Part shown: positions 8,301 to 50,916 of the stretch, one piece after another
Numbering within the stretch: position 1 is the stretch's first letter
How the letters are laid out: every line of letters begins with the position of its first letter
DNA from: a virus
Direction: 5' to 3' (one strand)
Virus record (IMG/VR): IMGVR_UViG_3300010354_000044
Location: 32,001 to 96,000 of that record
DNA: 64,000 nucleotides
The notes under the pieces: generated by a model
Database searches by the model: none
What the model was told of the DNA's origin: nothing
The model's input: only the letters and a program-made list of their open reading frames with translations
Program-made: the position numbers and the translations under genes

Positions 8301-11300
8301 CCACTGGCCCTAGCTCAGAGCCTGGCACTGAGTTCTTCGAAATAAAAGTACCTGGAGAAGTCCGTAAGTACACAGGAGGTATGCTAGCTGTTGCCGGGCC
8401 TACCAAAGCAAAGCCAGGTCAGGGCGGCGGCCTAGAGCTAGAAATCCCCTGGTTAATAGAAACAGGAATTGGAGGTACAAGCCGGTCATCTTCCCTGACT
8501 AAGGGGCCTTGGTTAATGTACGACGGCGCCGGATTTGAAGCCTTTGGCACGGCTTTCAAAGCCAATTCTATGCTTTCACATCTCCAGAATGACAGCATCT
8601 TTGCCGTGATGAACCCGGGCGTTTTCAAGGCTTATAATTATGAATCTGGGCTGTCTATTCTACGGGATACTGCGTCTAGGCAAAGTCTACTGAATTTAAG
8701 TAGCGGCGATTTAAGTTTGATTCTGGGTATCGCGTTTTTACAAAAGAACACGGATACCCGTCTTCGGCAAGCCCTGGTCAATTACCTAGACAGTAACTCC
8801 AGTTCACTAGCAGTAAGCCCTTACTTACGAACGCTTATTCAAGATAAATCCTTTGGATCATCAGCGGCTAAGTTAGAAAACCTCTTACTAACAGCTCCTG
8901 ACTTAGCTACCTTAGTAGATAGTCCAACCCTTAGAGACTTTGGAGATAAATTAGCTGAGCAATTTGAGAGTGGGACTTTTGATATACAGAGCCGACTTGA
9001 AGCTATTGTTAATAGGGCTCTTAAAGGGTCTACGACTATTTATGAACAGATAGAAGGGGATGTACGGGGCATTCGCACGTTTGACGAGCGAAACTTTAGT
9101 GTACGTAGTGCCGGCATTTTAGCTGATATTATTCATACAACACAACAAACAATAGACCCAAGCCGTACTTTAGGTCGTATAACAGGCAGTAAACCCTTAA
9201 CAGGCCTTAACTTTATAGATGATCAAGGCCGCCCTAACGTTAGAAAATTTATAGATAACCGCGATTTCCGGGCTGCATCGTTAGACATGGCGCAAAAACT
9301 AAGGGTGCGCTCTCTGTTGCCCAATCAGAGTATTTTAGAGAGCTCTTTAAGTCAGCTCAGGGAGGGGGATGCTCTTTATAAGGACATAGAGAACCTGCTC
9401 TATGTTATCCATAGTTCGTTAATGGCGTCTCCCTACATTGAACGAGCCATTAATTTACTACCTAGTCGTGTTTTATACCCGGCAGGCTCTGAGGACGCTG
9501 TAGGCCTAGAATACCATTATTCTTTAAGCCTTAGTAAAAAAGAGTTTGCGGCCTTACGGGGGCAGGGGCTTGATATGGAAAGGTTCACCCAAGCCCAAGC
9601 TGCTTATAGCACTGTTGTAACCCATAGTGGTGTTAATGAAATTAGCCGTAGGATGGAGATTATATCTCCATTTGGTGTAGACCCAGCGCAGCGGAATTTA
9701 GGTCGTATCGTCTCGGCGCTTATACAGAATTACAATGAGATATCGGGTAAAGCTCAGTTTATTGGTAATGATAACCTTAGCCCCTTAGATGCTATTGTCC
9801 GTAGTATAAGCGCCGGGGATGAGACTGAGCTAAATAGCTTAATGTCCCGGTATCAACTTATTAATCAAGCCGTAAGGTATCATCGCGGCGTAGGCCCCTC
9901 TGACCAACAAAGTGCGGTTAATCTGATAAGTGCGGTTAATCTGATAACTGCGCTTAACCCGAGTCGGCTTGATTTAAGTCAAGCCACTGACGAGCAAATT
10001 AGAACCTTAGGAGCTTTATATAACCTAAGGGGCGATGTTACTACTATCCGGCAAAGGTTGTCGGAGTTAGGCCCTACGTTGGGCCGAGGTCTGCTTTATT
10101 TAGACCGCAGTGACAATCTATTTAGTGAAAGGCGCTTGGCTTTGTCTAAAGCCATTATAACCTACTCGGAGTTAAGACGAAATAAGGGGCTTACTGACTT
10201 AAGTTACAACCTAAGTCCTTATGCTGCTGACGTACAGTCTGCATTAGTAACTTCAAATGTTAATAGCTACAATATTGGGTTTCTTGAGTTTGAGCAGGCC
10301 TTAAATTTAGTCACAGACCAGTCCTCCGGACGCCTTGATGTTAGATACGCCGATAATAGGTCTACAAAGATACTTAATGTAGCCAGTAAATTGCAAGCTA
10401 ATGACGCTTTTGTAGAACGGCTAGCGTTGAACGCCGCGGGTACTAGCACTACAGATACGTTTATTAATTCTCTACAGCGAATAGTAGCCGGTACAGAGAA
10501 TATTCTTAAATTCTATGGAAAGGAGACTGAACAAGCCCAGAGAGCACTAAAACTTCGTAGTGAAGTTTACGATACAAAAACGTTGCTCCTACCTGCTATT
10601 GAAACATATACAGCGGGAGACGGGACTATTATAAAACTAGCTGAGTCAGATAGTAACGGAAAAGTACAGTATACAGATACTCCCGTAGTTCAACTAGGGT
10701 TGGATGTTCTAAGTCAAATACCTACTAGATTTGAATCTTACATTAATGAAGTTGTGGAACGCCAGCAACGTATTCGTGAGCTGATTCCTAAATTCCAGGA
10801 AGTGGTTAACCAATTACAGAAGGGCTTCATCTCTAATGCATCTGTCAGCGATATCAGCATTATAGAAGAGATGCAGCGATTAGCTTACGAAAGTCAACAT
10901 GATTTAGAATCTATTTTAACGTCTGTTCTGCAGCAGAATGCTGAGAACGAGAAGCGTAAATACCCTGGGGTGGCGTTTACAGCAGTAGCTGATTACTTAG
11001 CTACACCTACAGAGGCTTTTGTCGGTAAGCGAGTTACCTCCACTGGGTTAAACCAGGTAGTTAGGGATGCGAAAGCTACTTTAAACTCCCCGGAGCTGTC
11101 CAAGGTAGAAGTAGAAGCACTACAACGTATCGGCCAGTTAACCGGGTATGTCAACAGGGCTGGGGGCTTAAGCGGAGCAAGCCAGTCTACTAACATGCTC
11201 CATGATGTTAAGTCTCAGGCTATTCTAAAAGAACGTGGTCAGCTAGAGAATAATCAATTACAGCTATCTCTACAGGGTAATGAAACAGCCTTGATTGTTT

Positions 11301-14300
11301 CTATGTACGGACGATTCGGGGTCCATGGCGGTGACTTTGATGGTGACTCTTATCAGCTGATATTCGGATTTAGGGATATCCAAGAAAGCCTTGTCAAGGC
11401 TATTCAGCACCGCGATGCTATCCGTAATAGCCTGCTAAACCTACAGAGTCAATCTACTCTAAATTCAGATTACAATGTCGCTATTCAAGGTAGGATATCC
11501 AATCTACAGACAGCCCTTACCGCCAGCCAGCAGGACGTAGATAGGTTAATTACTGAGGTAGATAATCTAAGCACCATTACCGCCGACCGGGTTAAAGAGG
11601 GTATGCGTAGGCACGTAGCTGCTTTTACGGGTATTCCCTTGTCTTTGGCTCTAAAACCGGAATATTACAGCGATGAAGAAATCGCGTACATGATTGAACA
11701 GCAGCGAGGGGTTACTCCGGGTTTGACTGACGCCGGCGAGAAGTATGGCGATCAAATAACAAAGTTTACTCAGCTGTTTAACAGACTTAATCCAACCACT
11801 CTCGCTAGTGCCTCGGATGAGATTATTGATTCTGAAGCTAGCCGACTCAAGTTCAGCGCAGAGGAGCTTAGTCTCTTCAAGGAGTTTGCCCGCCAAGATA
11901 ATTTGTACGCGGACAATCTAACGGCTTCGGACCGTAACCGTTTATTTACCGAATCTATCACGTCTTATTTTAACCTGCACATGGGTTTATCTGAAGGGAA
12001 TAAATTTGCCCAGGCCGCCGCAGGTTCTGTATTGGATTTAGGAACCTTTGAGGTTCTCCAGACGGTAGTAGGTAATGTAGGGACATCCTTAATTGGTGAA
12101 GGCTATAACGCTATCACGACACTTATTGGCCGCAGTGTTCTAGCTAGAACTATGGGGCAGGCCTTAAATGACCCTACTACAAATATAGGCGAGGGAATCG
12201 TTCAAGCGCTGGATACCCTAAATACCAATAATACTTTAGACGATAATGTAACCCGTATCAAAGACTTATTTTCAGAAGGGCGATTAAAGCAAACGGCGGC
12301 GTTTGCCGAGTCCCGGGCCCAGCAGTTACAAATGAATTTAGGGCTTATCCAGCAAATCATCCGGGACTCGCTAAAGCCAAAACAAGAGGGAGGGACTATT
12401 GCGGCCATTGCGGAGCAGATGGGCGATGAAAGCTTTAAGACTAAGTTCCTTAACGAGCAAGATACGGACACGCGCATGGAGTTGTTGCGCAACTTCGTGT
12501 CCACCAGAGCGGTGACAACCATGGTTGGGAGTCAGACCTCTGGTAATACTTCCCTTATCAATACCTTCGGGGCTATCTTTTTATTAGCTGACTATACAAA
12601 GCTAGAGGACCCTACCTCTATGCTACGTAGTGATAGCCCTCGGTACGATACGCTGCGCCGCACCCAGCAACTATACAAATCAGCCGCAGAAGGGCTTGAC
12701 GTTAATCTTGAAAGTTTAGACGTTATCAGCCGCTTGAGACTCAAAGACAAAGAGTTTGTGGCCCGGATGGCGACAGATGAAGAATTTTTGGTACGTCAGA
12801 CAATAACTGATCTGATCAATACAGCGGTAGCTGAGGAGGCTTTCAATAAGTACTATGCTTATGGTCAAAGTGACGAATCTCTAATAAGCCGAGCTAACAT
12901 TGAGCGAGATAACTATATTAAAGCGTTATCCGACTCTAACCTTACAGGGGATAGCGGGCTGTACTTCAAGAACGAGCAGCACAGAGAAGCCGTCAGGAGA
13001 AGCCTCCATATAGATGGAAATACCGATGACTTTTTCTTTACGGCAGAGACGGCCCGGCAGTCCTTGTTAGACATAACTCTGGTGCGTAAAACCTTCCTGG
13101 GCATGACTGAGAGCGATGTAGAGTTCTCCCGGAAGGTCAATAGGGCCGGGTCCATTCTATCGCAGCCTGACATTAGTGCCAGTTTTGCCCCTTTTGCCAG
13201 TGCCCAGGCCGAGAACCTTGTAGCTATCCAACAATGGGCTAAGCGTGGTCGTATGGACGACCCTAGAGCCATGACTACATTTGAGATTGGTTCATCCGCA
13301 CGTTTATTTGACGCAATAGACCAGGTCCACCAGAATCTGACGGAGGAGTTTGGTTCTCTAGAAAACGCATTATCTAAACAGGAAGTATACGCAGCCTATT
13401 CTCAGATGGCCGAGCTCGCCGGCGTGTTTGATATTAGCAGGGAGGATAGTAATATTCTAAGCTTGGCGCTTCAGACAAGAGTTGAGGGCCGGCAGTCTAT
13501 ATTCTCAGAGTTAGCTAATTACAATGCCGGACTTGCTTATATGCAGGAACGTATTAACCAGCAACAGGATATTATTTCAAAAGGTACCTTAACTGATGCA
13601 GACGAAAGTCGGTTAAATACCCTTTACGCAGACCTAGAAGCTTTTGCCACCGGCTTAGATGCTAATGCCAATCAGAACGAGGCCTTCAGAGCTAAGGTAA
13701 GAGAGATTGGCGAGTTTCAGCGCTCCTTAAAAATGGACCAGGCTCAGCAGAGAAAGGCCACCTACGCCAATATTATTAATACAAAAATACATACACCTAC
13801 CTCCCTAGATGTTACTGGGTATGGGTTTAATAACACCTTGGAATTGTTTGCGGCCCCTATTATTGGGGCTGCGTTAATCCAAGGGGGACTTGACGAGCGG
13901 TTAGTCTCTGGGACTTACGATTTACTGCAGGGTCTGTCTACCGTTGAGGGTTCGGCCGGCAATGTAAGAGCACTAGAAGCTGACCGGTTATTTAGGTTGG
14001 CGCGCTTTAAAGAGCAAATGTTACAAGGGGAAAGTTTGCTTTTAGGTGCAACTCAAGCCCTAGCTGCCGAGACATTTTTCATGGGAACTGCGTCTTTAAT
14101 TGCCTCCAAATTACGTTCCCCCAACTCCCCCTCCCCTAACTCCCCTAACAATCGGCAGTCTGGTTTAAGTGGAATTATGGCCGAGGCAGTGGTTACAGCT
14201 GCTGCCTTGGCTTTTACTCGCCGGAACAACCAATATGGTATTGACGGAGAACCTTACCGAAATCTCGCTGCAGAGGCTCTATTACAGACAGCGGAAGCAA

Positions 14301-15632: not shown

Positions 15633-16484
15633 ATGCCACTTAAAGGTAAAGACGGTTCACAGACCGACTATTTTATTAAGACAGAGAGTGATGTTTTTAA
15701 TAACAGTAATGACGGGGGTTCCGCGCCTACAGCGACGGCCACTATTGTTGCAAGTCCTGATCTAGGTCGGCAGAGTGATTCCGCAGCTACTAGCAATACT
15801 GGATCGTTTAGTATTGTCGCTCTACTAAAGCGTCTACTAGGGACTACCTTAGTAGACGTTTCTAGTAACCTTACATCGTTACGCTCAGGGGTTAATGATG
15901 ATCTAGGGCGGAGGGCTGATACAGCAGCCACAAGCAACACAGGAGAATTTAGTGTTGTGGCGCTTCTGAAGCGTCTGCTAAACACTACGCTGGCTGATGT
16001 GGCTACTAATGTATCCGCCTTGCGTACTGGCGTTAATAATGACCTTGGCCAAAGAAGCGACTCAGCAGCTACTACCAATACAGGAGAATTTAGTGTTATA
16101 TCCCTGTTAAAGCGGTTGTTAGATACAACCCTTAGTAATGTTTCTACCAATATTGCGGCATTACGTCTAGCTGTTAATAACGATAATAGGGTTCAGGCCC
16201 AAATCTTAGGCTCTATTCCCTTACCCATAACTGATAACGGCAGCAGTGTTACTGTAGATAATAATGGCACGTTTCCGGTACAGGTCAATAACCAAGTTAG
16301 TCTGAATGCTGTTTGGGGTATTCCAGCCTTTGATAGAATTGCACTAACTTACGACGGACAGAATAACGTCACGTCTATTACCTATGGTCGGGGCAATAAT
16401 ACCAATATAGCCACGCTGAGTATTACCTACAGTGGGGGGAACATCGCTACGATTATACGAAATCCTGCCCTAAGTAATCTGTAA
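15633..16484 (+). CDS. Virion fibre-like protein with three ~40-aa repeats
   Basis: DLG..D.AAT.NTG.FS...LLKRLL.TTL repeated three times; ATG at 15633. Confidence 0.55.
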   Translation: MPLKGKDGSQTDYFIKTESDVFNNSNDGGSAPTATATIVASPDLGRQSDSAATSNTGSFSIVALLKRLLGTTLVDVSSNLTSLRSGVNDDLGRRADTAATSNTGEFSVVALLKRLLNTTLADVATNVSALRTGVNNDLGQRSDSAATTNTGEFSVISLLKRLLDTTLSNVSTNIAALRLAVNNDNRVQAQILGSIPLPITDNGSSVTVDNNGTFPVQVNNQVSLNAVWGIPAFDRIALTYDGQNNVTSITYGRGNNTNIATLSITYSGGNIATIIRNPALSNL

Positions 16485-29673: not shown

Positions 29674-29859
29674 ATGACCTACTACAGGGGTCATTAAATA
29701 AGCTGTAGTTCCCTACCCTGGTGGGCTTGGTGCGGTCCGATTCCGCACTAGGGTTTTGCCTTGAATTTCTTTCTCCAAGGATATTCACACAGGTACTTAG
29801 AGTACAGGCGAAATCTTGTGTATGGATGCCTTTATGCCTACACAAGCTAGGAGAAAAAG
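29674..29859 (+). ncRNA. Structured leader: PK1 + tRNA-like element + 3-way junction/anti-SD module
   Basis: Near-copies at 31504-31685 and 30739-30885 with compensatory changes. Confidence 0.7.
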
Positions 29860-31685: not shown

Positions 31686-32084
31686 ATGTCTATTATCAAA
31701 CAGACTTCTTCAGTAGTCCCGACTATTGAGGAAGCAACTGCCCTAGCATGCACCCTACGGATGCAGGGGATACCCTGCTATGTGGGGAAAGTTGGAACCC
31801 ACTACCGGGTAGACCCGGCTCTTCCCAAGCAGTACAAGAAACGGGCTAGTAAGAGACCTGCCCGGGACTACATTTCCCTCCTAGGAGGGGATGACTGGTG
31901 CCTTAAGGCGCCGACCAAAGTCCCAAAAACGGGAGACTGGGTGGATTGTACCCCCGAAATGGGGGTGGCGGCCTGCCAGGCCGCTTTGGCAGAGAGGGAC
32001 TGGGAGCTAGTCTCCCGGTTAGAGGTAACGTATTGCGGTAAACCCGCAATACGGGCGACCTATAGCAAGGTACGCCCTAAATAA
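31686..32084 (+). CDS. Hypothetical protein
   Basis: AGGAGA RBS after the structured leader. Confidence 0.65.
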   Translation: MSIIKQTSSVVPTIEEATALACTLRMQGIPCYVGKVGTHYRVDPALPKQYKKRASKRPARDYISLLGGDDWCLKAPTKVPKTGDWVDCTPEMGVAACQAALAERDWELVSRLEVTYCGKPAIRATYSKVRPK

Positions 32085-41942: not shown

Positions 41943-41989
41943 TAACTTAGCGCCCTGATCTACCTTTAGACCTAGGGCGCTAAGTTATT
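41941..41989 (+). terminator. Long inverted repeat after the RNAP fusion gene
   Basis: AATAACTTAGCGCCCT...AGGGCGCTAAGTTATT. Confidence 0.55.
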
Positions 41990-42097
41990 AAGCTAACAAA
42001 TCCCCCTGGGTGTGTTTATTGCTGCGCTCTACCCTGTATAGGGTCCAGGTGCGGTTCCGGTCTTTGGTTTGTCGGTGGTGTCCGTAGGGTGTCGGGC

Positions 42098-42226
42098 TGG
42101 CCTGCTTCGGTTCGGGTTGGCGGCAGTCTGCAGAGCCTGTCGGTCTGTGCCCGCATTGTTGGGGCTGTCCACTTCCACCGCGTTGTTGGATTGGCCTGCT
42201 TCGGTTCGGGTTGGCGGCAGTCTGCA
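42098..42226 (+). repeat. Exact 35-nt direct repeat (2 copies) in an A-depleted tract
   Basis: TGGCCTGCTTCGGTTCGGGTTGGCGGCAGTCTGCA at 42098-42132 and 42192-42226. Confidence 0.85.
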
Positions 42227-42254
42227 TCGTTGTTGGAATACTAGGAGAAAGAAA

Positions 42255-42872
42255 ATGGAACTGAAAGTAACCCCTAAGATCCTTGAGAACGGACGCGTAT
42301 GGAATACCTTCTGGGGTAGTGCCACCTCAGAGAATGGCGTCAGGGTATTGCAGGAGGACCTAGGTAACAGCATATACGCAATTGACATAAGTTGCGTATC
42401 TGTGATTTGGTATAAGAATGGGGACCTCTCCGTAGAGATATCGTCTCCGCTCCTTACCCCAGTGGGAGAGGTAAAATACTTAACCGTGGGTAAATCCACG
42501 GTTGAGAGGTCGCGTTTTATTCAATTATTCGGGCGTGAGGTCTACGAGACTTTGCTCACCCTAGAAGTGAGTAAGCGCCATTCCCTGGAGGGGCGTGGCC
42601 GAATTGCCTGGAAATGGGCGCCCCGTAAAGAGGAGGGAGAATTGTATTTCTCTGAACTTGATACTGACTGTCCGAACATCAGGATCAGGTTGTTCGCCGG
42701 TGTGGGTGGCCTGCTGCCAAATAGCGCAGTTCGTGCTTGGGAGCCCGCGCCTGCTGCTCCCAAGGCTCCTGCGCCCCTGGCTCCCCTACCCACTCTGGTC
42801 CCGCTTACACCCCAGCCCCCCAAGCTGGGGGTGCCCGAGGCCCCCGCACCCGCCGCCCTAGATAACGTCTAG
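42255..42872 (+). CDS. Hypothetical protein with Pro-rich tail
   Basis: AGGAGA RBS before ATG 42255. Confidence 0.6.
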   Translation: MELKVTPKILENGRVWNTFWGSATSENGVRVLQEDLGNSIYAIDISCVSVIWYKNGDLSVEISSPLLTPVGEVKYLTVGKSTVERSRFIQLFGREVYETLLTLEVSKRHSLEGRGRIAWKWAPRKEEGELYFSELDTDCPNIRIRLFAGVGGLLPNSAVRAWEPAPAAPKAPAPLAPLPTLVPLTPQPPKLGVPEAPAPAALDNV

Positions 42873-43281
42873 GCCCCCCATTCTGCCGTCCTCCCAAGGG
42901 CGGCAGTTTGGTTTGGATGTTACGTAACGGCGAAGTCTTGACCTCCTTCCCCTTACCGACACATCCCACCTCGGCCCTACCCGGTGGGCTAGAAAACTAC
43001 CGGGCGGTGTCGGCTAAGGCGACGTTAAAGACACGCGCGGGGGGAGGACCTAAGCTCCAAAACCCCGCCATGAGGTGTACCAGGACTGTACACCAAATAA
43101 GCCCAGTCCCCTCTAGGGGTTCAAAAAGCCTGGGTCAATGTGCAAAGGGGGCTTGGCCAGCCCCCGGATGGGCTCGCTTTGCCCTCATGCCCAGGGCGCC
43201 CTGGGCAAAAACCAAACCGCCGTTGTGTTAGCTATGATAAGCTAATATAGCGGCGGTTTGGTTTAGGAAAGGTGTAAAAGA

Positions 43282-43668
43282 ATGTTCGTATCACAAATTG
43301 AAGAAGTCTTGTACCGCCCCTATACAACGGGGATGATACGGGAGGAGCTGCCGCAGTCCACAATAAAAGCGGTGGTCGTCTCCCTAGCGGGGACAGACTA
43401 CACGCAACTCCCGGAGGAGGGAGATCTAGATACAGGAAATCTAGGCCTATGCCTGGAATTCCCTGCTTTTGGCTGCCCTCAATGGGTAGTGGCAAAAGTG
43501 GCAAAGAGGACCTCCCACTACCCGTGGGTAGGGGTCTTTGACCACGGTAAAAGGGAGTTCGTGGTAATACACACGATTGCCGATTACTGGGTACCTCAGT
43601 ACCCGGTAATGGGGGAACTCCTTAGCCGCACTCCAGAGGGGGTGGAGCTAGTGCTTCCCCCGGTGTAG
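43282..43668 (+). CDS. Hypothetical protein
   Basis: Bounded by family hairpins; RBS upstream. Confidence 0.6.
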   Translation: MFVSQIEEVLYRPYTTGMIREELPQSTIKAVVVSLAGTDYTQLPEEGDLDTGNLGLCLEFPAFGCPQWVVAKVAKRTSHYPWVGVFDHGKREFVVIHTIADYWVPQYPVMGELLSRTPEGVELVLPPV

Positions 43669-43744
43669 GCTAATCCTACAAACCGCCGTGTATTAGCTTA
43701 TTATAGTTAATACACGGCGGTTTGATTTTGACGGAGTAGAGACT

Positions 43745-44131
43745 ATGGAAATTATGATCAAGTACCCCGCAGGGGGTACCGCTATTGTTTGCGAGCTCCC
43801 CCCTGCAGGGAGTCTCCCTACCGCGTTTGCGTTAGAAGATGTCTCTAGACCTAGACAAGTAATCCGCATTGAGCGGAGAGAGGAGGGCGACCTCCTGGTT
43901 GAACGGGGAATCGTAGGTAGACACTGGCACGTATATAAGGTAGCTACTATTAAGGTAGCTGGTATTTGGGGGGAAGTCCGCGGGGACTTCTGCTCCATTA
44001 AGGAAGGGGATGGGACAATAATTGAATACAGAAAAGGCCCAGGGGATTATTGTATCTCCTGCGGGACTTTTCAAGGCCCTCGCGGGGAGTACCGCGAGGG
44101 CCATAACTGCTACATGTGCGGGATGAATTAG
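43745..44131 (+). CDS. Hypothetical protein with C-terminal Zn ribbon
   Basis: CISC...CYMC. Confidence 0.6.
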   Translation: MEIMIKYPAGGTAIVCELPPAGSLPTAFALEDVSRPRQVIRIERREEGDLLVERGIVGRHWHVYKVATIKVAGIWGEVRGDFCSIKEGDGTIIEYRKGPGDYCISCGTFQGPRGEYREGHNCYMCGMN

Positions 44132-44132
44132 C

Positions 44133-44261
44133 ATGTATATGTCTCCGTTAAAACAGCTAGGCTTGTGGGTATCAGGAGTGGCGATTGGCTTTGCGATCGC
44201 CACTGGTATCCAATTGGTAGAGTGCCCGCCACCGCTACCATCTACAGAGCAACAGCCTTGA
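44133..44261 (+). CDS. Small membrane peptide (42 aa, not in ORF track)
   Basis: MYMSPLKQLGLWVSGVAIGFAIATGIQLVECPPP...; fills the gap exactly. Confidence 0.4.
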   Translation: MYMSPLKQLGLWVSGVAIGFAIATGIQLVECPPPLPSTEQQP

Positions 44262-44371
44262 AACCAAACCGCCGTTACTAAGCTACTATAAGCAAAGTAA
44301 CGGCGGTTTGATTTATTCCACGGATTCACTACAATAATTACCCCCGACCGTGGCGGGGGAGGAGGAAAATT

Positions 44372-45298
44372 ATGAGCCTGTTGTTTGTATTAAACCCCGC
44401 GCCCAAGGCGCAGGAGGAAATGATCAAATTGATTAAGGCCCAGCCCGGGCCTTACATCGGGTTGGAAATGACGGTCCCAGAGCTAGCAGCTCTGATGGAC
44501 GTCAATATAGACCCTCAACATACAGGCTTTGACGCAGCGACGAGCTGCGTCAAAGCCTGCCTAGAAGGGTCCTTCCTGGTGAAGGGAGGGGCCTACTTCA
44601 CCGTCCGCGCTGACCTGGACGCATTCGCGTCCTACCTGATCCTCGCGGGTCTAGTAGATATTAATAATGAAGATGTCTTCGTCAGACTCATGATGATTCA
44701 TGTAGCGGATACGTTCGCCCATGGCCCTTGGTCACTTGGAGCTAGCGGTACTGGCTATGAAAAGCCTTCGTTGGCGGGTATTAACCGCTGCGTGGCGGAC
44801 TACAAGCTGCCGGTAGAGGAACGGCTCGCTGCTCTCCAGCATTGGCTGGAAACCGGGGAGCATCCAGAGAAACACCTGGCTGAGGTAGAAGCCGAGGCCG
44901 AGGAAATCGCCACCGCCTTAGAAAGCGGGCAGACTGTAGTAACCATTTTAAGTGGTTACACCATAGTACAGTCTGAGTTGCGCGGAGCACCCAGCATTGG
45001 CTACCGGAGTAATCCGGTGGTTCTTGCGTGGAACCCGGCCTTCCCCATTTACGGGGAAATTGATGGAAATCAGGTTGTCGTTGGGCAAGGGCTTAAGTAC
45101 TCCGTCTGCCAGTGGGCAGAGGGGTACATTGACCTGAATGGTTTCCTTGCGGAAATCCGTAAGGAAGAGCCCGGGTGGGGAGGAAGCCCCACGTTCGTAA
45201 GCTCGCCCCAGAACGTGGCTAGTGAGGTCCCACTACAGCGTGTGCAAGAACTGTTTTACCAGTTCTTGCACCCTACTGCACAACTTGCTAGTTGCTAA
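44372..45298 (+). CDS. Putative DHH-superfamily-like phosphoesterase
   Basis: NIDPQH, RADLDA and C-terminal GWGGS motifs; GGAGG RBS. Confidence 0.4.
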   Translation: MSLLFVLNPAPKAQEEMIKLIKAQPGPYIGLEMTVPELAALMDVNIDPQHTGFDAATSCVKACLEGSFLVKGGAYFTVRADLDAFASYLILAGLVDINNEDVFVRLMMIHVADTFAHGPWSLGASGTGYEKPSLAGINRCVADYKLPVEERLAALQHWLETGEHPEKHLAEVEAEAEEIATALESGQTVVTILSGYTIVQSELRGAPSIGYRSNPVVLAWNPAFPIYGEIDGNQVVVGQGLKYSVCQWAEGYIDLNGFLAEIRKEEPGWGGSPTFVSSPQNVASEVPLQRVQELFYQFLHPTAQLASC

Positions 45299-45386
45299 TG
45301 TTTCGTAAATCAAACCGCCGTTACTAAGCTATTATGCAAGGTAACGGCGGTTTGATTTACATAGCTATAGCTAAGGGAGAAACTAA

Positions 45387-45773
45387 ATGGATTGGGTCAG
45401 AACGATCCAGGAGCAGGTAGCTCCTGTTATGCTGAGTGAGTTTGAGGACCGAAAAAGACGCCTAACGGTTTTCCTGGAATTATGGAAACGTCAAGAGCCC
45501 CAAGCATATGCTAAATGGGCCCAAGAGGAGGAAGAGGCCACACTTGCCGACTGGCAGTGGGCTAACGGCACGGGAAATGGGACGTTTGGCCCTCTGTCGG
45601 TCTATCATATAGATCCGACAGAATATATAAAGATAGGTGTCCCCACTAAACAAGCCTACGCGGGCTTGTTCAACAAGGATACCCGAACATGGACCGGCGT
45701 GTACCTAAATAAAATACAAACCCTATGCTTGAGTAGTAAACTACCCAAGCATTGCGAGATAAGGGTCATATAG
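45387..45773 (+). CDS. Hypothetical protein
   Basis: GGAG RBS; bounded by hairpins. Confidence 0.6.
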   Translation: MDWVRTIQEQVAPVMLSEFEDRKRRLTVFLELWKRQEPQAYAKWAQEEEEATLADWQWANGTGNGTFGPLSVYHIDPTEYIKIGVPTKQAYAGLFNKDTRTWTGVYLNKIQTLCLSSKLPKHCEIRVI

Positions 45774-45840
45774 GTTGCTGCCGTGGTGTTGACTCCCTAG
45801 GTCAACACCACGGCGGTTAGATTTGCAGTAGGAAATAACC

Positions 45841-46029
45841 ATGCTTACAGAACACCAAAAAAATCACGCAGCGAAGACCCTCAGGCTATTTGAAGTTCTT
45901 CCTCCATACAGCGAGGAAGAGCTTACTAAGATCGTAAATGCGCATGCGCAAATCAGCGCATCGCTGAAGGATATAATAGTAAAGCGGGATGGAAGCGGCC
46001 ACGTTGATTGGGGAGATTTATTCTTCTAG
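45841..46029 (+). CDS. Hypothetical protein
   Basis: AGGA RBS after a hairpin. Confidence 0.5.
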   Translation: MLTEHQKNHAAKTLRLFEVLPPYSEEELTKIVNAHAQISASLKDIIVKRDGSGHVDWGDLFF

Positions 46030-46206
46030 GCCGCCGAAACTGCCGCAAGAGGCCGGGTAAACGGGTGTCTACTGATGGAGGAAACGTGCAATGAAATAAA
46101 AGCCGCACGTTCTAGCCTCCGGTAGGTGTACGAACTGCCGGTAATAAAGCCTATTACAGCTTATTACCGGCAGTTTGATATAGTTACCCCAGGAGGGGAG
46201 GAATAT

Positions 46207-46542
46207 ATGAACGTAGTATTTAAGGAGTTCATGGTTGCGCTAGTAGAGAATAATATCAGTTTCTCCTTTCATCAGACGCAGCGTGGAGCATCAAAGGGGA
46301 TTACCATACACTTCGGTACCGCTGAGGGGAGCTATTTCTTCACTCCAACGGAAAAAGAAATCGCGCTATACGCCCCGAACAGGACGTTCACCGGGGGTTA
46401 CATTTACTCCTTTGAGGATGTAGCCCAACTGGCGTTCAAGTATTGGACATCCTCTGAGGACAGTTATGTCCTAGAGGAGTGGGAGGATATTTTCCGGGAA
46501 CGGGGATGGGTTGAAGAGGTTACCGTCCTCAAGCCTAAATAA
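46207..46542 (+). CDS. Hypothetical protein
   Basis: GGAGG RBS before ATG 46207. Confidence 0.6.
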   Translation: MNVVFKEFMVALVENNISFSFHQTQRGASKGITIHFGTAEGSYFFTPTEKEIALYAPNRTFTGGYIYSFEDVAQLAFKYWTSSEDSYVLEEWEDIFRERGWVEEVTVLKPK

Positions 46543-46610
46543 AAACTACCGGGGTATTGATCCTAAAAATCAATACCCCGGCTGTTTGATTTACTCATAG
46601 GGGAGGCGAA

Positions 46611-47321
46611 ATGTACTTAGTAGGGGGGTCCGTTAGGGACCTTTTGTTAGAGCTCACTGTTGACGACTACGACTTTGTATTCGTAGCCTACAGCTGGGAG
46701 CATTTGGTAGAACTAGCCCAAGGGGAGTTTGGGCCAGTTCCTAAGGCCGGGACGGAATCTGGATTTGTTGAATTTCCAGACACCTTCACCTTAAAGGGGA
46801 TGAAGGTGATTGATAGGAAGCGGCAGATCTGTGACATTGCCGCTGCCCGGCGGGAATACCACAGTGGCCCCGGGCATAAGCCCTCGGCTATTTCTTTGGC
46901 GCCTACGCTAGAGGAAGACCTAAAGCGCCGGGACTTCACAGTTAACGCGATGGCACGTGACTGGAAGACCGGTGAGTTAATTGACCTATATGGCGGGCAG
47001 GCCGACCTGTCCGCCAGGGTGCTTCGCTGTGTCGGCGATACGGAAAAACGCCTATTAGAGAACCCAGACCGGGTAATCCGGGCGTTTTATTTCCAGTGTA
47101 AACTAGTAGGCTTCACATTCTGTGAAGAGCTGGAAGCAGTTCTTCGTGAGTCTGTGGTGGTTCAAAAAGCAGTCGCCGACGACTGCCCTGACCGAAAAGC
47201 TCAGCAGCTGACTAAGCTCCTTAAAAGGGCTTCAACGGCTGAGCTGATGGGAACGATCTCCGAATACCCCCAAACATGGGCGGCGATCACAAAGGGGCTT
47301 AAGCTAAAGTTCACAACTTAA
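46611..47321 (+). CDS. tRNA nucleotidyltransferase/poly(A) polymerase family protein (head and neck only)
   Basis: YLVGGSVRDLLL...DYDF, DLKRRDFTVNAMA, ENPDRVIRAF. Confidence 0.85.
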   Translation: MYLVGGSVRDLLLELTVDDYDFVFVAYSWEHLVELAQGEFGPVPKAGTESGFVEFPDTFTLKGMKVIDRKRQICDIAAARREYHSGPGHKPSAISLAPTLEEDLKRRDFTVNAMARDWKTGELIDLYGGQADLSARVLRCVGDTEKRLLENPDRVIRAFYFQCKLVGFTFCEELEAVLRESVVVQKAVADDCPDRKAQQLTKLLKRASTAELMGTISEYPQTWAAITKGLKLKFTT

Positions 47322-47387
47322 GCACACCAGGCTGCCGCTATTACCCCCAATAGCGGCGGTTTGATTTGTAAATCTAAGGAGGGCTTT

Positions 47388-47756
47388 ATGACCAAGATAC
47401 ATCGGGACAGTCGGGGGGTGCTTTACCGCCTTCCCGACCTGGAAGACGCGCACCTAGAGAATATAATCAGGCGCCTAGAGCGGGCAGCCTGTCTAGGGGT
47501 ACGTGTTAAGGTAAAGTATGGGTACACAACCGTCTATGGCGTTGAGGCTGAGCAGTATTTAGAACTCTCAAAGTACCGCGAAGAGCAGGAAAGACGGGCT
47601 AAGATAGCAAGCTTGCGTAAAAGCGTGAGCGAACTTAAGGCTGTTTTAGCAGAGAGGCCTATTCCTAATATACAGGACATCATAAGAGCCCAAGAGGAGT
47701 GGTTTACACAATACCACTTCTACTGTAACGAACCCAAGCGTGGTGCTTACCGCTAA
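47388..47756 (+). CDS. Hypothetical protein
   Basis: AAGGAGG RBS before ATG 47388. Confidence 0.6.
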   Translation: MTKIHRDSRGVLYRLPDLEDAHLENIIRRLERAACLGVRVKVKYGYTTVYGVEAEQYLELSKYREEQERRAKIASLRKSVSELKAVLAERPIPNIQDIIRAQEEWFTQYHFYCNEPKRGAYR

Positions 47757-47832
47757 GGGTAACTAAAAATGACAAGGCCGCCTGTGTATCCTATACACCG
47801 GCGGTTTGATTTGTAAGCTTTAAGGAGGGTTC

Positions 47833-48108
47833 ATGGCTAAAGTATTTACGAAGGTAGTGGGGCATTGTAGCGAATGCCCTAATTACCGAAAGGCCCCCTG
47901 GGGCGGGCAGTGTCTGTCACTTGAGGTAGATATCTATCTTAAGGCAGACACAGAAATCCTAGCTGATTGCCCACTAGAAGGAGACGGGGTACAGGTACAG
48001 GTACAGGAACCCGAGACTAAAGTGCGCTCAAGGGTTGACTGGAGTAAGGTACCTAAAGTAATTGAGCCGGAAGAGTTAGACTTCCGGCAAGCCTGCGAGG
48101 ATGCGTAG
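47833..48108 (+). CDS. Small Cys-containing hypothetical protein
   Basis: CSECP...C...CPL; AAGGAGG RBS. Confidence 0.6.
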   Translation: MAKVFTKVVGHCSECPNYRKAPWGGQCLSLEVDIYLKADTEILADCPLEGDGVQVQVQEPETKVRSRVDWSKVPKVIEPEELDFRQACEDA

Positions 48109-49184
48109 TGATAGGCTTCATCCTGGCCCTACTAGGGAGTAGAATCCCGAACGGGCCTTTAATAGCGTTGTTCATATGCCCCTCGGCATATGACGCTATC
48201 ACCTGCTTCTTTGCAGGCCTTTACCTGAACACTCCCCGGGAGCTGATGCGCCCGGAGGAGTCCGGCAATCTGGAGCAGATGCTTGCCACAGGCGGGCGGA
48301 GGCTCCGGTTTGACGATAGGACGCTTGGCATCGCCATTGAAGTAATGGTGCATGTCAAGCTGATGATGTTCATTTTCGGTCTAGCCTTCGGAGTTTTCTT
48401 CGGCTACGTAGGCGCAGACCGGATCTATGGAATGGCGCCCTTCACCGGGGCGCTCGTTATTCTTTGGGTCATCCTGAAGAGTGACGATACGGTAAAAACC
48501 ATTATTAGCCTGGCGTTTTCAGGCGTAATGGTTTTCGCCTTAATTAAGTTGGGGTTACCTAACGCCCTGCCGGTGCTATTGCTGACTCTAAGCACGTCGC
48601 CGGCAAAAGAAGAGGAGAGCGTTGAGGTGGATGGCCTTACCGAGGTCCTCCGCTGCAAAGAGCATGCCCCGATGGATTGGCTGCTCGGCGGGATGGTTGG
48701 GCTCGTCCCTGGCCTGAACGCCAGCAACTGGGTCTGTAATTTCGGGAATTCCGATAACCGGGATAACCGATTAACGGCCCTTGCCATAGGCATATTCGCC
48801 GAGGGTATTGCCCTTGGCGTCATCATGGCCTCCCGATTTACCGGGAAGACTGCGCTTAGCCAAATGCTAAGTGATTGGCAGTTCATTCCCGGCACCACCG
48901 CGCTGCTACTCGGGCTAATCGCCTGGATGGCAGCTGCGATGCTATATCGCCGGTGGCCGCGGCTGGCGATGGCCCAGGTCCCTGGGTTAGGCCTTATTGG
49001 ACAGGTAGGGCCTCTGGCCCTGGCGGTAGTTTACGCTACTGCCAACCAATGGGCGCTCCTATTTCCAGGCAGCGGCCTAGCTGCTGCGCTGGTTATAGTA
49101 GGAGGGCTGAAGATGTTGTCAGTCTCAGTACCTGACAACATCAAACCCGTCATCGCCACCCTACCCGTCTTGGGAGGTGGGTGA
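48108..49184 (+). CDS. Polytopic membrane protein, TctA-like
   Basis: About 9-10 hydrophobic segments; LLGGMVGLVPGL motif. Confidence 0.5.
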   Translation: MIGFILALLGSRIPNGPLIALFICPSAYDAITCFFAGLYLNTPRELMRPEESGNLEQMLATGGRRLRFDDRTLGIAIEVMVHVKLMMFIFGLAFGVFFGYVGADRIYGMAPFTGALVILWVILKSDDTVKTIISLAFSGVMVFALIKLGLPNALPVLLLTLSTSPAKEEESVEVDGLTEVLRCKEHAPMDWLLGGMVGLVPGLNASNWVCNFGNSDNRDNRLTALAIGIFAEGIALGVIMASRFTGKTALSQMLSDWQFIPGTTALLLGLIAWMAAAMLYRRWPRLAMAQVPGLGLIGQVGPLALAVVYATANQWALLFPGSGLAAALVIVGGLKMLSVSVPDNIKPVIATLPVLGGG

Positions 49185-49561
49185 TGAAATTAAACTTAGC
49201 TCTAGCGCTGGGGGTGCTTGTTTTTGTTGGCCGTTGCGCCGACAATCGCACCCCGATGGAGTGGGAGGTGCATAACCTAGTCGAGTGCGACCAGGATGGG
49301 TGCTTCACAGAAGGCGGCGGTCGTGTTTCTGGCCACCACCTTCAAGAAGGCCTGCAGGAGGTGCTGATACAGAAGGGGAATAACCCAACCATCCTACGCA
49401 GCTCCCCTGTCCTAGGGAAGGAACCCCTAGGTAAAGTTACCGACATAGCCCCGGCGGGGGCGGAGTACGTAGTGACTGCTAACGGTGAGCAATACATCGT
49501 GGCAGACTGCGAAAAGGGTGCACAGCTATTCAAGAAGGGGTTAACCCTCTCCTGCGAATAG
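49181..49561 (+). CDS. Secreted or lipoprotein hypothetical
   Basis: N-terminal signal ending VGRC. Confidence 0.5.
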   Translation: MMKLNLALALGVLVFVGRCADNRTPMEWEVHNLVECDQDGCFTEGGGRVSGHHLQEGLQEVLIQKGNNPTILRSSPVLGKEPLGKVTDIAPAGAEYVVTANGEQYIVADCEKGAQLFKKGLTLSCE

Positions 49562-49794
49562 TTTGTACCCGTACAAAGGGCCCCCTCCCCTACTCCCCCT
49601 AAAAGCGGCGGGTTGGGAGAGGGTACGCTCCGCCCCCACCCCTCTCCCTCCTCCTCCTAAGCCCCCCAAGGGCGGCAGGATGGTCATGATGTTTCTTTAA
49701 ACAAATCGCTGTGTCCCCCAAGGATGCGGCGGTTTGCTTTAGGGGTTTAAACCCCTAAAGCATTATCCACTTAACCAAAACGAGTCAAATCAAA

Positions 49795-50868
49795 ATGTCT
49801 AACCAAACAATCCAAACACTCAACGAACCTGAAAGCCCCGCTGTTATCGAGTTCCGGGAGTCCATGAACCGAGCCATCGGGGAATACAACAAGACCGGAA
49901 ATATCACCGAAAAATTTGAACTATTCGGCCTGCAGTGGGAATGGTATGTGCGCATTGGTAGCAACAACCAGTACTCTTTGGAATGCCAAGTAACCTATGA
50001 TCACCCCACCTTAACGGGAGAAGATGGGAAACCCCTCTCTCAATGGATCGGGGACGATACTGATAATGTCCGGGGCTCTATGATTATCGTCCCTAGAAAG
50101 CAGGGCTCTACGTTTACTGGGGAGTTTTACTATGGAGTAAACTTCTTCTACCGCAATGGTGACTTCTTTAACGGCGTTCGCGATGCTCTATATGGTTATA
50201 AGAGCCTGCACGCTGTTAATAAGCTAGCCGTGCGCCATCCCTTTAAGGCACTGGGGAATTCTGCTGTACAGGGTGAAATGCGTGAGGCTGCTCGGAAAAT
50301 GGTGGCCGCTAAAAACGAAGAACAGCAGCATAAAACCGTCACGACAGTGACTGGGGCCGATGGCTCTGAAATAGTGATCAGCTACACCCAGGTTTCCATC
50401 GGGAAGTTTGGGTTGTACATAAATGTCAGCAATAAGGGGGCTGTCGTAGTGCACTCTGCCAATGGCGGAGAGAACTACACGGTGCTTAACCTTATTGGGG
50501 GGCGCCCTGACCACTTGGACACCGTTCTCCGTAATGACGCCACTACCCTGGTACTGGAGTTGAGTGCCTACATTGCCGTAGGCAATGAACTGCTGACTGT
50601 CCGAGAGCTATTCAAAGGCAAGGAATTCGCCAACGACGCCTGTCGGGACTGGTTCTACCAGAATATGGCCGAGCTTATCTCCAAGGCGTTGCGACATGGT
50701 CCCATGCGCGCAGCGGTGACTCCTGCTATGCTCCATCCACAATACATTCGGTGTGAGTACACCGAACCTCGCATCGGCGGTAACAGCACCGAGCAGTTGC
50801 AGCCGCTTGATACTTTGCAAGTCGCTAACGCGATTCCTCAGGTCAGCGATGCGCTGAGCAACGCCTAA
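49795..50868 (+). CDS. Hypothetical protein (357 aa)
   Basis: Long ORF, last gene before a strong terminator. Confidence 0.7.
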   Translation: MSNQTIQTLNEPESPAVIEFRESMNRAIGEYNKTGNITEKFELFGLQWEWYVRIGSNNQYSLECQVTYDHPTLTGEDGKPLSQWIGDDTDNVRGSMIIVPRKQGSTFTGEFYYGVNFFYRNGDFFNGVRDALYGYKSLHAVNKLAVRHPFKALGNSAVQGEMREAARKMVAAKNEEQQHKTVTTVTGADGSEIVISYTQVSIGKFGLYINVSNKGAVVVHSANGGENYTVLNLIGGRPDHLDTVLRNDATTLVLELSAYIAVGNELLTVRELFKGKEFANDACRDWFYQNMAELISKALRHGPMRAAVTPAMLHPQYIRCEYTEPRIGGNSTEQLQPLDTLQVANAIPQVSDALSNA

Positions 50869-50916
50869 TCCCATAGGGCCTGTGTCTTCATAGGCCCTAG
50901 CTCGTTTTCTCCTAGC

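Follow-up and report, generated by a model that had tools for sequence, protein, structure and literature searches.

Within a 64,000-nucleotide (nt) stretch of the virus record IMGVR_UViG_3300010354_000044 (positions 32,001 to 96,000 of that record, hereafter the window), an array of small genes between 42883 and 49740 is punctuated by eleven related hairpins that share a 14-nt word at their 3' side, CGGCGGTTTGATTT (the 14-mer). The hairpin fold is under selection, with a bias to the sense strand, and the 14-mer is the site at which gene cassettes have been deleted, exchanged and replaced between related phages. The reading that we favour, with a probability of about 45%, is that the elements are terminator-shaped intercistronic RNA hairpins, working as leaky stops and/or as protection of 3' ends, and that their shared word would provide a patch of homology for recombination.

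A hairpin family confined to one array

A search for the 14-mer in the window with up to two mismatches gave 14 matches where 0.43 were expected, a count equalled by none of 100 shuffles. Eleven of these are on the + strand, spanning 42901-49740, and the three on the - strand lie in hairpins 2, 4 and 5, whose lower stems are palindromic. Across the whole 171,984-base record, the 14-mer (up to one mismatch) is confined to the 7-kb array, where a contig-wide listing of long hairpins also has its strongest cluster. A looser hairpin detector found no match in the phage's own genome outside the array, and nine across 1.41 Mb of unrelated phage loci. All eleven + strand sequences fold, with 13 to 25 pairs (13-17 in six stems, 18-25 in the other five), loops of 3 to 8 nt and energies of -18 to -40 kcal/mol, and their 3' base reads CGGCGG followed by TTTGATTT, with variants in individual copies. 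The upper stems are fully diverged among copies while the 3' word is retained; the loops have no conserved base and the stems no bulged bases. These counts and folds bear out the initial annotation, which had described about eleven intergenic hairpins with a fixed 3' arm just upstream of ribosome binding sites. The features are as follows (lengths of proteins in amino acids, aa; ORF, open reading frame).

42883..49740, + strand: whole array, ten units between eleven hairpins, every gene on the + strand
42878..42914, + strand: hairpin 1, core stem 42883-42906, tail TTTGGTTT; after the 205-aa gene 42255-42872
43209..43264, + strand: hairpin 2, 25 pairs including a lower A-U stem; closes the ORF-less 290-nt unit 42915-43205
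43680..43728, + strand: hairpin 3, after the 128-aa gene 43282-43668
44265..44314, + strand: hairpin 4, after the genes 43745-44131 and 44133-44261
45307..45358, + strand: hairpin 5, after the 308-aa gene 44372-45298; lower stem a perfect palindrome
45777..45824, + strand: hairpin 6, tail TTAGATTT; after the 128-aa gene 45387-45773
46126..46181, + strand: hairpin 7, 3' word CGGCAG, tail TTTGATAT
46543..46592, + strand: hairpin 8, 3' word CGGCTG; begins at the stop codon of the 111-aa gene; conserved word partly unpaired
47328..47367, + strand: hairpin 9, after the 236-aa nucleotidyltransferase gene 46611-47321
47775..47812, + strand: hairpin 10, after the 122-aa gene 47388-47756; register off by one base, 14-mer intact
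49702..49740, + strand: hairpin 11, tail TTTGCTTT; after the three-gene unit 47833-49561

The placement of the elements is regular. Eight of the eleven hairpins start 0-18 nt past a stop codon, and in eight of ten cases 16-28 nt, containing a GGAG-type ribosome site, separate the end of the 14-mer from the next ATG. Gene junctions that have no hairpin within the array are overlapping stop/start pairs (44131/44133, 48108, 49181-49184), and downstream of hairpin 4 the next ATG is reached after a 57-nt leader that contains a second small hairpin. The word forms a direct repeat of 14-24 bp, spaced every 0.4-1.9 kb.

Selection on pairing was assessed on the eight long hairpins that could be aligned, using 500 shuffles and, as a control, pairing partners slid by 1-3 columns; MAFFT could not align the 5' arms of short hairpins with those of long ones. 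In these eight, pairing extends to 91.9% of cells, and changes on both sides are seen in 11 of 21 pairs, which none of the 500 shuffles matches, and sliding the partners lowers pairing to 26-46%. The second pair of the G-C clamp at the stem base covaries as well (C-G, U-G, U-A). The folds of the + strand contain 21 G-U pairs against six in those of the - strand, and the summed RNA energy is -301 kcal/mol for the + strand versus -253 for the - strand, whereas with DNA parameters the strands are nearly equal (-173 and -162). The G-U pairs, called frequent in the initial annotation, are only moderately so (21 of 197 pairs on the + strand). The first 3-5 bases of the tail are often paired with a CAAAC-like 5' flank, which accounts for an invariant G in the tail and makes the finished fold longer than a terminator requires. 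Moreover, hairpins 8 and 10 retain the 3' word even though it is partly unpaired in one and shifted in register in the other, so that the word is constrained as sequence beyond its role in pairing, in agreement with what had been proposed from the letters alone. Unrelated, independently evolved terminators therefore do not explain the family.

It is scarcely plausible that these are ordinary intrinsic terminators that resemble each other only through recent local duplication. Their stem is indeed G-C rich and the tail behind it T-rich, and single hairpins of the same form occur in unrelated metagenome contigs, by chance or as plain terminators: exact hairpin patterns gave 6 and 23 single matches in IMG/VR, about the number expected by chance and with no arrays, and among the matches listed in a metagenome pattern scan there were only single unrelated terminator-like hairpins. 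However, recent duplication does not fit upper stems that have fully diverged beside a word that has not, nor the persistence of that word in a very distant relative (see below). The real end of the block also has a different terminator: its last gene (49795-50868) ends at a canonical one, 50874-50899, and the hairpin family is internal only. Finally, because eleven efficient terminators in series, with no promoters between them, would silence the distal genes, we infer that transcription runs on across the hairpins of the array, unless each word is a start site in its own right.

Further identities were tried and rejected. Elements of the REP/BIME type are ruled out, the family being confined to one 7-kb array and PF01797 having no match. 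The stem words recall type I-F repeats, as for a site of a Cas6/Csy4-type nuclease, but no such nuclease was matched in the contig. Rfam returned only sub-threshold microRNA-like matches for the hairpins. A cyanobacterial host was considered on the basis of HIP1, which occurs 7 times against 1.8 expected, no more than other G-C palindromes.

Cassette deletion, exchange and replacement at the 14-mer

Lake-metagenome contigs with a phage 90-95% identical to this one join position 43264 to 45868 across 43 letters of different sequence, and 47367 to 47799 across 451 such letters. Both joins were confirmed on DNA of a sister phage, about 90% identical overall, which was retrieved by exact-protein look-ups (L095 and L096). 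This phage has orthologues of hairpins 1, 2, 7, 8, 9, 10 and 11 and lacks the four units between hairpins 2 and 6, including the cassette closed by hairpin 3. The two hairpins are the left and right borders of a 2.6-kb, four-cassette difference, and the sister junction consists of hairpin 2 through its clamp to the left of the 14-mer and of the leader of hairpin 6, after its tail, to the right. A second difference starts at hairpin 9, the left border of a strongly diverged cassette: the unit between hairpins 9 and 10 has only a distant homologue in the sister phage (53% over 76 aa), and the replaced unit carries its own 5' arm and upper stem and ends in the identical 14-mer of hairpin 10. In all, five of six structural breakpoints fall within 8 nt of a 14-mer (P ~1.5e-6).

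When the unit bodies are compared with those of the sister phage, their nucleotide identity varies stepwise (88.6, 99.2, 91.0, 59-71 and 92.4%), and the steps fall at hairpins. Hairpins 7 and 8, which border the 99.2% unit, are fully conserved (100%) between the two phages, and hairpin 1 is unchanged in L096 with flanks that differ on both sides. Where orthologous hairpins have changed, the changes preserve pairing, as seen in hairpin 9 and in the 5' arm of hairpin 11, in which T-to-C changes convert G-U into G-C pairs. This role as a cassette boundary is new here, having been missed by the initial annotation, and is the best-documented property of the 14-mer. We also observed that the 62-aa gene (45841-46029) is truncated with respect to a 93-99-aa form in the sister phage (L096 7703-8002), which extends as far as hairpin 7; the window has 96 non-coding bases instead.

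The deletions and exchanges would proceed through homologous recombination at the 14-mer, within as well as between genomes, and a RecA/UvsX-like protein is encoded on the contig. Site-specific recombination of cassettes at folded-DNA sites, as in integron attC sites, is highly unlikely. The array has in common with attC the cassette architecture and imperfect palindromes with a variable centre, placed at the 3' end of the cassette and with the boundary at a conserved 3' core. In contrast to attC, which is defined by RYYYAAC and GTTRRRY cores, extrahelical bases and an IntI-type integrase, the core is unlike GTTRRRY except in hairpin 6 (most copies have GTTTGAT), there are no extrahelical bases, and the better-paired strand is the sense strand. 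No integrase is present: no tyrosine or serine recombinase and no Y1 transposase was found in the contig (estimated to be 87% complete), and PF00589 has no match there, while it matches 14 of 14 control genomes.

Candidate functions of the hairpins

PeSL elements of T4-type phages combine a stem-loop with an early promoter, bracket ORFans and mediate indels and swaps (PMC4122927). The present element may in effect act as a compact junction of this kind, minus the sigma-70 promoter part. The array would be read as one + strand RNA, because the 16-28 nt from hairpin to ATG leave no room for a separate promoter. At each junction this RNA would form a variable upper stem above a clamp of six G-C pairs, in many cases with a short lower stem of A-U pairs, a fold that would leave a short U run and the ribosome site single-stranded. 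The hairpin would then stop some of the polymerases and/or, once the U-rich linker has been cut, serve as a 3' cap for the cistron upstream of it, which would give each cistron a separate level and lifetime. Intrinsic terminators combine a G-C rich stem-loop with a U-tract immediately behind it. Here there is a G-C clamp, and the U-tail score (~3.1) is equal to that of the canonical terminators of this genome; the tail has 6 U in 8, always interrupted at positions 4-5, and its first bases are often engaged with the 5' flank as described above. A sigma-70 promoter with the tail TTGATT as -35 element was rejected, since in most units its -10 element would coincide with the ATG or lie beyond it. 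Hairpins 3 and 4 are the only ones followed by promoter-like hexamer pairs, whose regional count is no higher than in shuffles.

Several points weigh against this reading. Stems of 13-25 pairs exceed the need of a terminator, the 3' word persists in hairpins 8 and 10 without being fully paired, and it reappears in a phage that has no cassette gene in common and a polymerase only 33% identical. A word kept when unpaired and at such a distance points to a factor that reads sequence, which a purely host-driven hairpin does not require. Homogenisation driven by recombination cannot explain conservation across lineages without recent exchange, and only two array haplotypes were found.

The initial annotation had suggested RNA processing, on the model of the early T7 RNA. 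Here the host RNase III would cut the stem, as at T7 R0.3 to R1.3, and the leftover hairpin would stabilise the upstream mRNA; cutting with a protective 3' hairpin left behind is the likely logic in common with the T7/T3 sites. As in T7 and T3, related hairpins occupy nearly every gap of a co-directional, early-type block; G-U pairs are tolerated, and five stems have 18-25 pairs. However, a T7-type site has about two helical turns of duplex and a conserved internal loop at the cut. In the array, six stems have only 13-17 pairs, for which a T7-type site in the strict sense is unlikely, and those of a distant relative only 7-10; no internal loop or bulge is conserved at a fixed height, and conservation lies at the stem base and in the single-stranded tail rather than in mid-stem. 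No RNase III gene of the phage was found in the contig. We therefore regard RNase III processing as quite improbable. A site for RNase E in the tail was also rejected and is retained as a lead only: the order purine-UUU agrees with the +2 U rule, but the A at -3 reported for Synechocystis (PMC8682795) is absent.

A further alternative involves the phage's own transcription machinery. The array is preceded by a 2,859-codon gene and then by the 205-aa gene. The protein of 2,859 aa (2,841 from the ATG), an RNA polymerase of the two-barrel type fused to a helicase, has helicase, NADAR and macro domains (Pfam) and, in its alignment with relatives, an invariant DFDGD, the two-barrel motif. Two distant relatives of this polymerase proved informative. 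One, 33% identical (P0015), is encoded on a 16.8-kb contig (L097), where small + strand genes downstream of the polymerase gene are separated by hairpins with 7-10 pairs, ending in CGGCAG or CGGCGG and then TTTAGTTT or TTTGATTT, with a ribosome site 0-6 nt further on. The loose detector gives eight matches in 6.5 kb of this contig, and no array gene is common to L097 and the phage of the window. L097 also contains, at 11260-11290, 13134-13150 and 16100-16130, an orphan conserved 5' word, GAAGAACCCGCCGC, without a matching 3' arm; by comparison with the 'degraded PeSLs' of T4-type phages, these may be half-sites left by cassette loss. The second relative, 34% identical (IMG/VR locus L099), has several flanking genes in common with the phage of the window and retains the order of hairpin, T-run, ribosome site and ATG; CTGCCG...CGGCAG followed by TTTG is present in only two or three of its hairpins. 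No close or cultured relative was matched by blastn and tblastn among 50,697 phage records, and metagenome scans with the polymerase alignment, with the 308-aa protein alone and with the polymerase alone gave no match. The nucleotidyltransferase led to 80 loci of distant, unrelated phages, which were used as a negative control only.

The hairpin and the 14-mer could be a signal for this polymerase, either a sequence-specific terminator, or a promoter, or both back to back. As a promoter, it would start transcription at a conserved purine four bases beyond the stem; in the back-to-back form each cassette would be its own transcription unit. The array adjoins the polymerase gene on its downstream side in all three lineages, the DFDGD motif is invariant, the 3' word is kept at 33% polymerase identity and also where it is unpaired, and there is no space for any other promoter. 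There is also a precedent in the Thermus phage P23-45, in which the promoter motif of the genes read by a two-barrel virion polymerase is conserved, and a 26-nt motif is common to seven transcript ends (PMC10770324). Like that 26-nt motif, the word of the array is a sequence-conserved, repeated signal located among clustered small genes, and both phages have a two-barrel polymerase. Unlike it, the array motif is the base of a hairpin with a U-rich tail; the RNA ends of P23-45 have been mapped, and its promoters have an AT-rich motif of their own. For the single-chain polymerase YonO, the promoter is unknown (PMC5467207).

Against such a signal, only about ten accessory units in 172 kb bear the motif, and the polymerase gene and the structural genes do not. 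The strand bias of G-U pairs and the compensatory changes favour pairing of RNA over a promoter in duplex DNA, and L099 retains only CGGCAG then TTTG, in its two or three hairpins. Early transcripts of a crAss-like virion polymerase showed no upstream motif in common. The hairpin promoters of the N4 virion polymerase, a T7-like enzyme, have stems of 5-7 bp and a 3-nt loop with conserved bases. The array resembles them in that the phage encodes a giant polymerase protein and the hairpin lies a few bases ahead of a potential start, and the initial annotation had evoked them; an N4-type promoter nevertheless fails here on stems of 13-25 bp, on loops that vary and on an enzyme of the two-barrel type. 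Taken together, we consider a signal for the phage's own polymerase the most serious rival of the favoured reading, though less likely than it. In its back-to-back variant, an RNA hairpin would end one transcript and the DNA, opened or extruded with the help of the fused helicase, would start the next at the purine, which we find improbable; if true, the swappable cassettes would be self-contained transcription units and their polymerase would be beyond host control.

Genomic setting and comparison with PeSL elements

Between ~29.8 kb and 50.9 kb, every gene is encoded on the + strand. The [G + C] content of this block, which comprises the polymerase gene and the array (window 30000-51000), is 50-55%, versus 42-48% in the flanks. 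Beside the ORF-less 290-nt unit, seven units of the array contain single genes (coding for 128, 308, 128, 62, 111, 236 and 122 aa), one contains two genes and one three. Among the array proteins, only the 236-aa nucleotidyltransferase has a match in Pfam or PHROG. The 308-aa protein (44372-45298) has 127 distant unnamed homologues, at most 40% identical and without Pfam match; this widespread family occurs in phage-like contigs and in bacterial metagenome-assembled genomes. The protein itself is absent from the sister phage. The loci encoding such homologues (L126, L127 and L129) are not flanked by the hairpin family. The array genes are probably host-takeover or anti-defence genes. The G+C-rich ORF-less unit (42915-43205), which may be what is left of a decayed cassette or else a small RNA, has no called gene in the sister phage either; there, 104 different letters take the place of 114 nt.

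Other structured sequences surround the polymerase gene. Upstream of it, four stem-loops resembling a tRNA T-arm (5-bp stem; loop TTCGACT, TTCAACT or TCCGATT) are located in gaps between small genes at 29731, 30259, 30759 and 31560 of the window (+ strand). None of the four is called a tRNA by ARAGORN or Rfam, and a comparable stem-loop is found in L097 at 847-978; they may represent another sort of intercistronic punctuation. A word of ~40 nt is present twice in the same region, at ~30198 and ~31508. Immediately past the stop codon of the polymerase gene lies a strong 15-pair hairpin (41945-41988), which has no T-run and is outside the family. It is followed by a G/T-rich, A-poor leader (42041-42236) with a direct repeat of ~43 nt (42090-42132 and 42184-42226), both copies of which terminate in CGGCAGTCTG, resembling the 3' word of the hairpin family. 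The repeat is shared by the sister phage (L096 6527-6569 and 6621-6663), and the leader as a whole folds no better than shuffles (z = -0.76). Finally, outside the window, at 106008-106037 and 106186-106217 of the contig, two near-identical hairpins of 13-14 pairs, 178 nt apart, form a second small family.

The closest known system is the PeSL (Arbiol 2010, PMC2839356; Comeau 2014, PMC4122927). In both cases, many copies of a conserved stem-loop lie between small ORFans of a plastic region, directly before a ribosome site; insertions, deletions and replacements between close relatives stop at the elements, and homologous recombination is the proposed mechanism. They differ in that the PeSL has a sigma-70-type promoter (-35/N17/-10) after the stem-loop, which the 16-28-nt gaps of the array do not fit. 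Moreover, the conserved part in the array is the 3' arm and tail, and the phage belongs to an unrelated lineage with a two-barrel polymerase. The family thus behaves as PeSLs do without being PeSLs in the strict sense, for want of the promoter. A further mark of PeSLs is the excision of mini-circles with one element each.

If the reading as leaky RNA hairpins with a shared recombination patch holds, a second, unrelated phage lineage shuffles its accessory genes along repeated regulatory hairpins, and the PeSL idea would extend beyond T4-type phages, the promoter part being dispensable. To our knowledge, helicase-fused two-barrel RNA polymerases are an undescribed family, and we know of no promoter or terminator for them; a word kept at 33% polymerase identity is a concrete candidate for such a signal. 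In addition, the 14-mer marks the borders of cassettes and is usable to mine new accessory genes in metagenomes.

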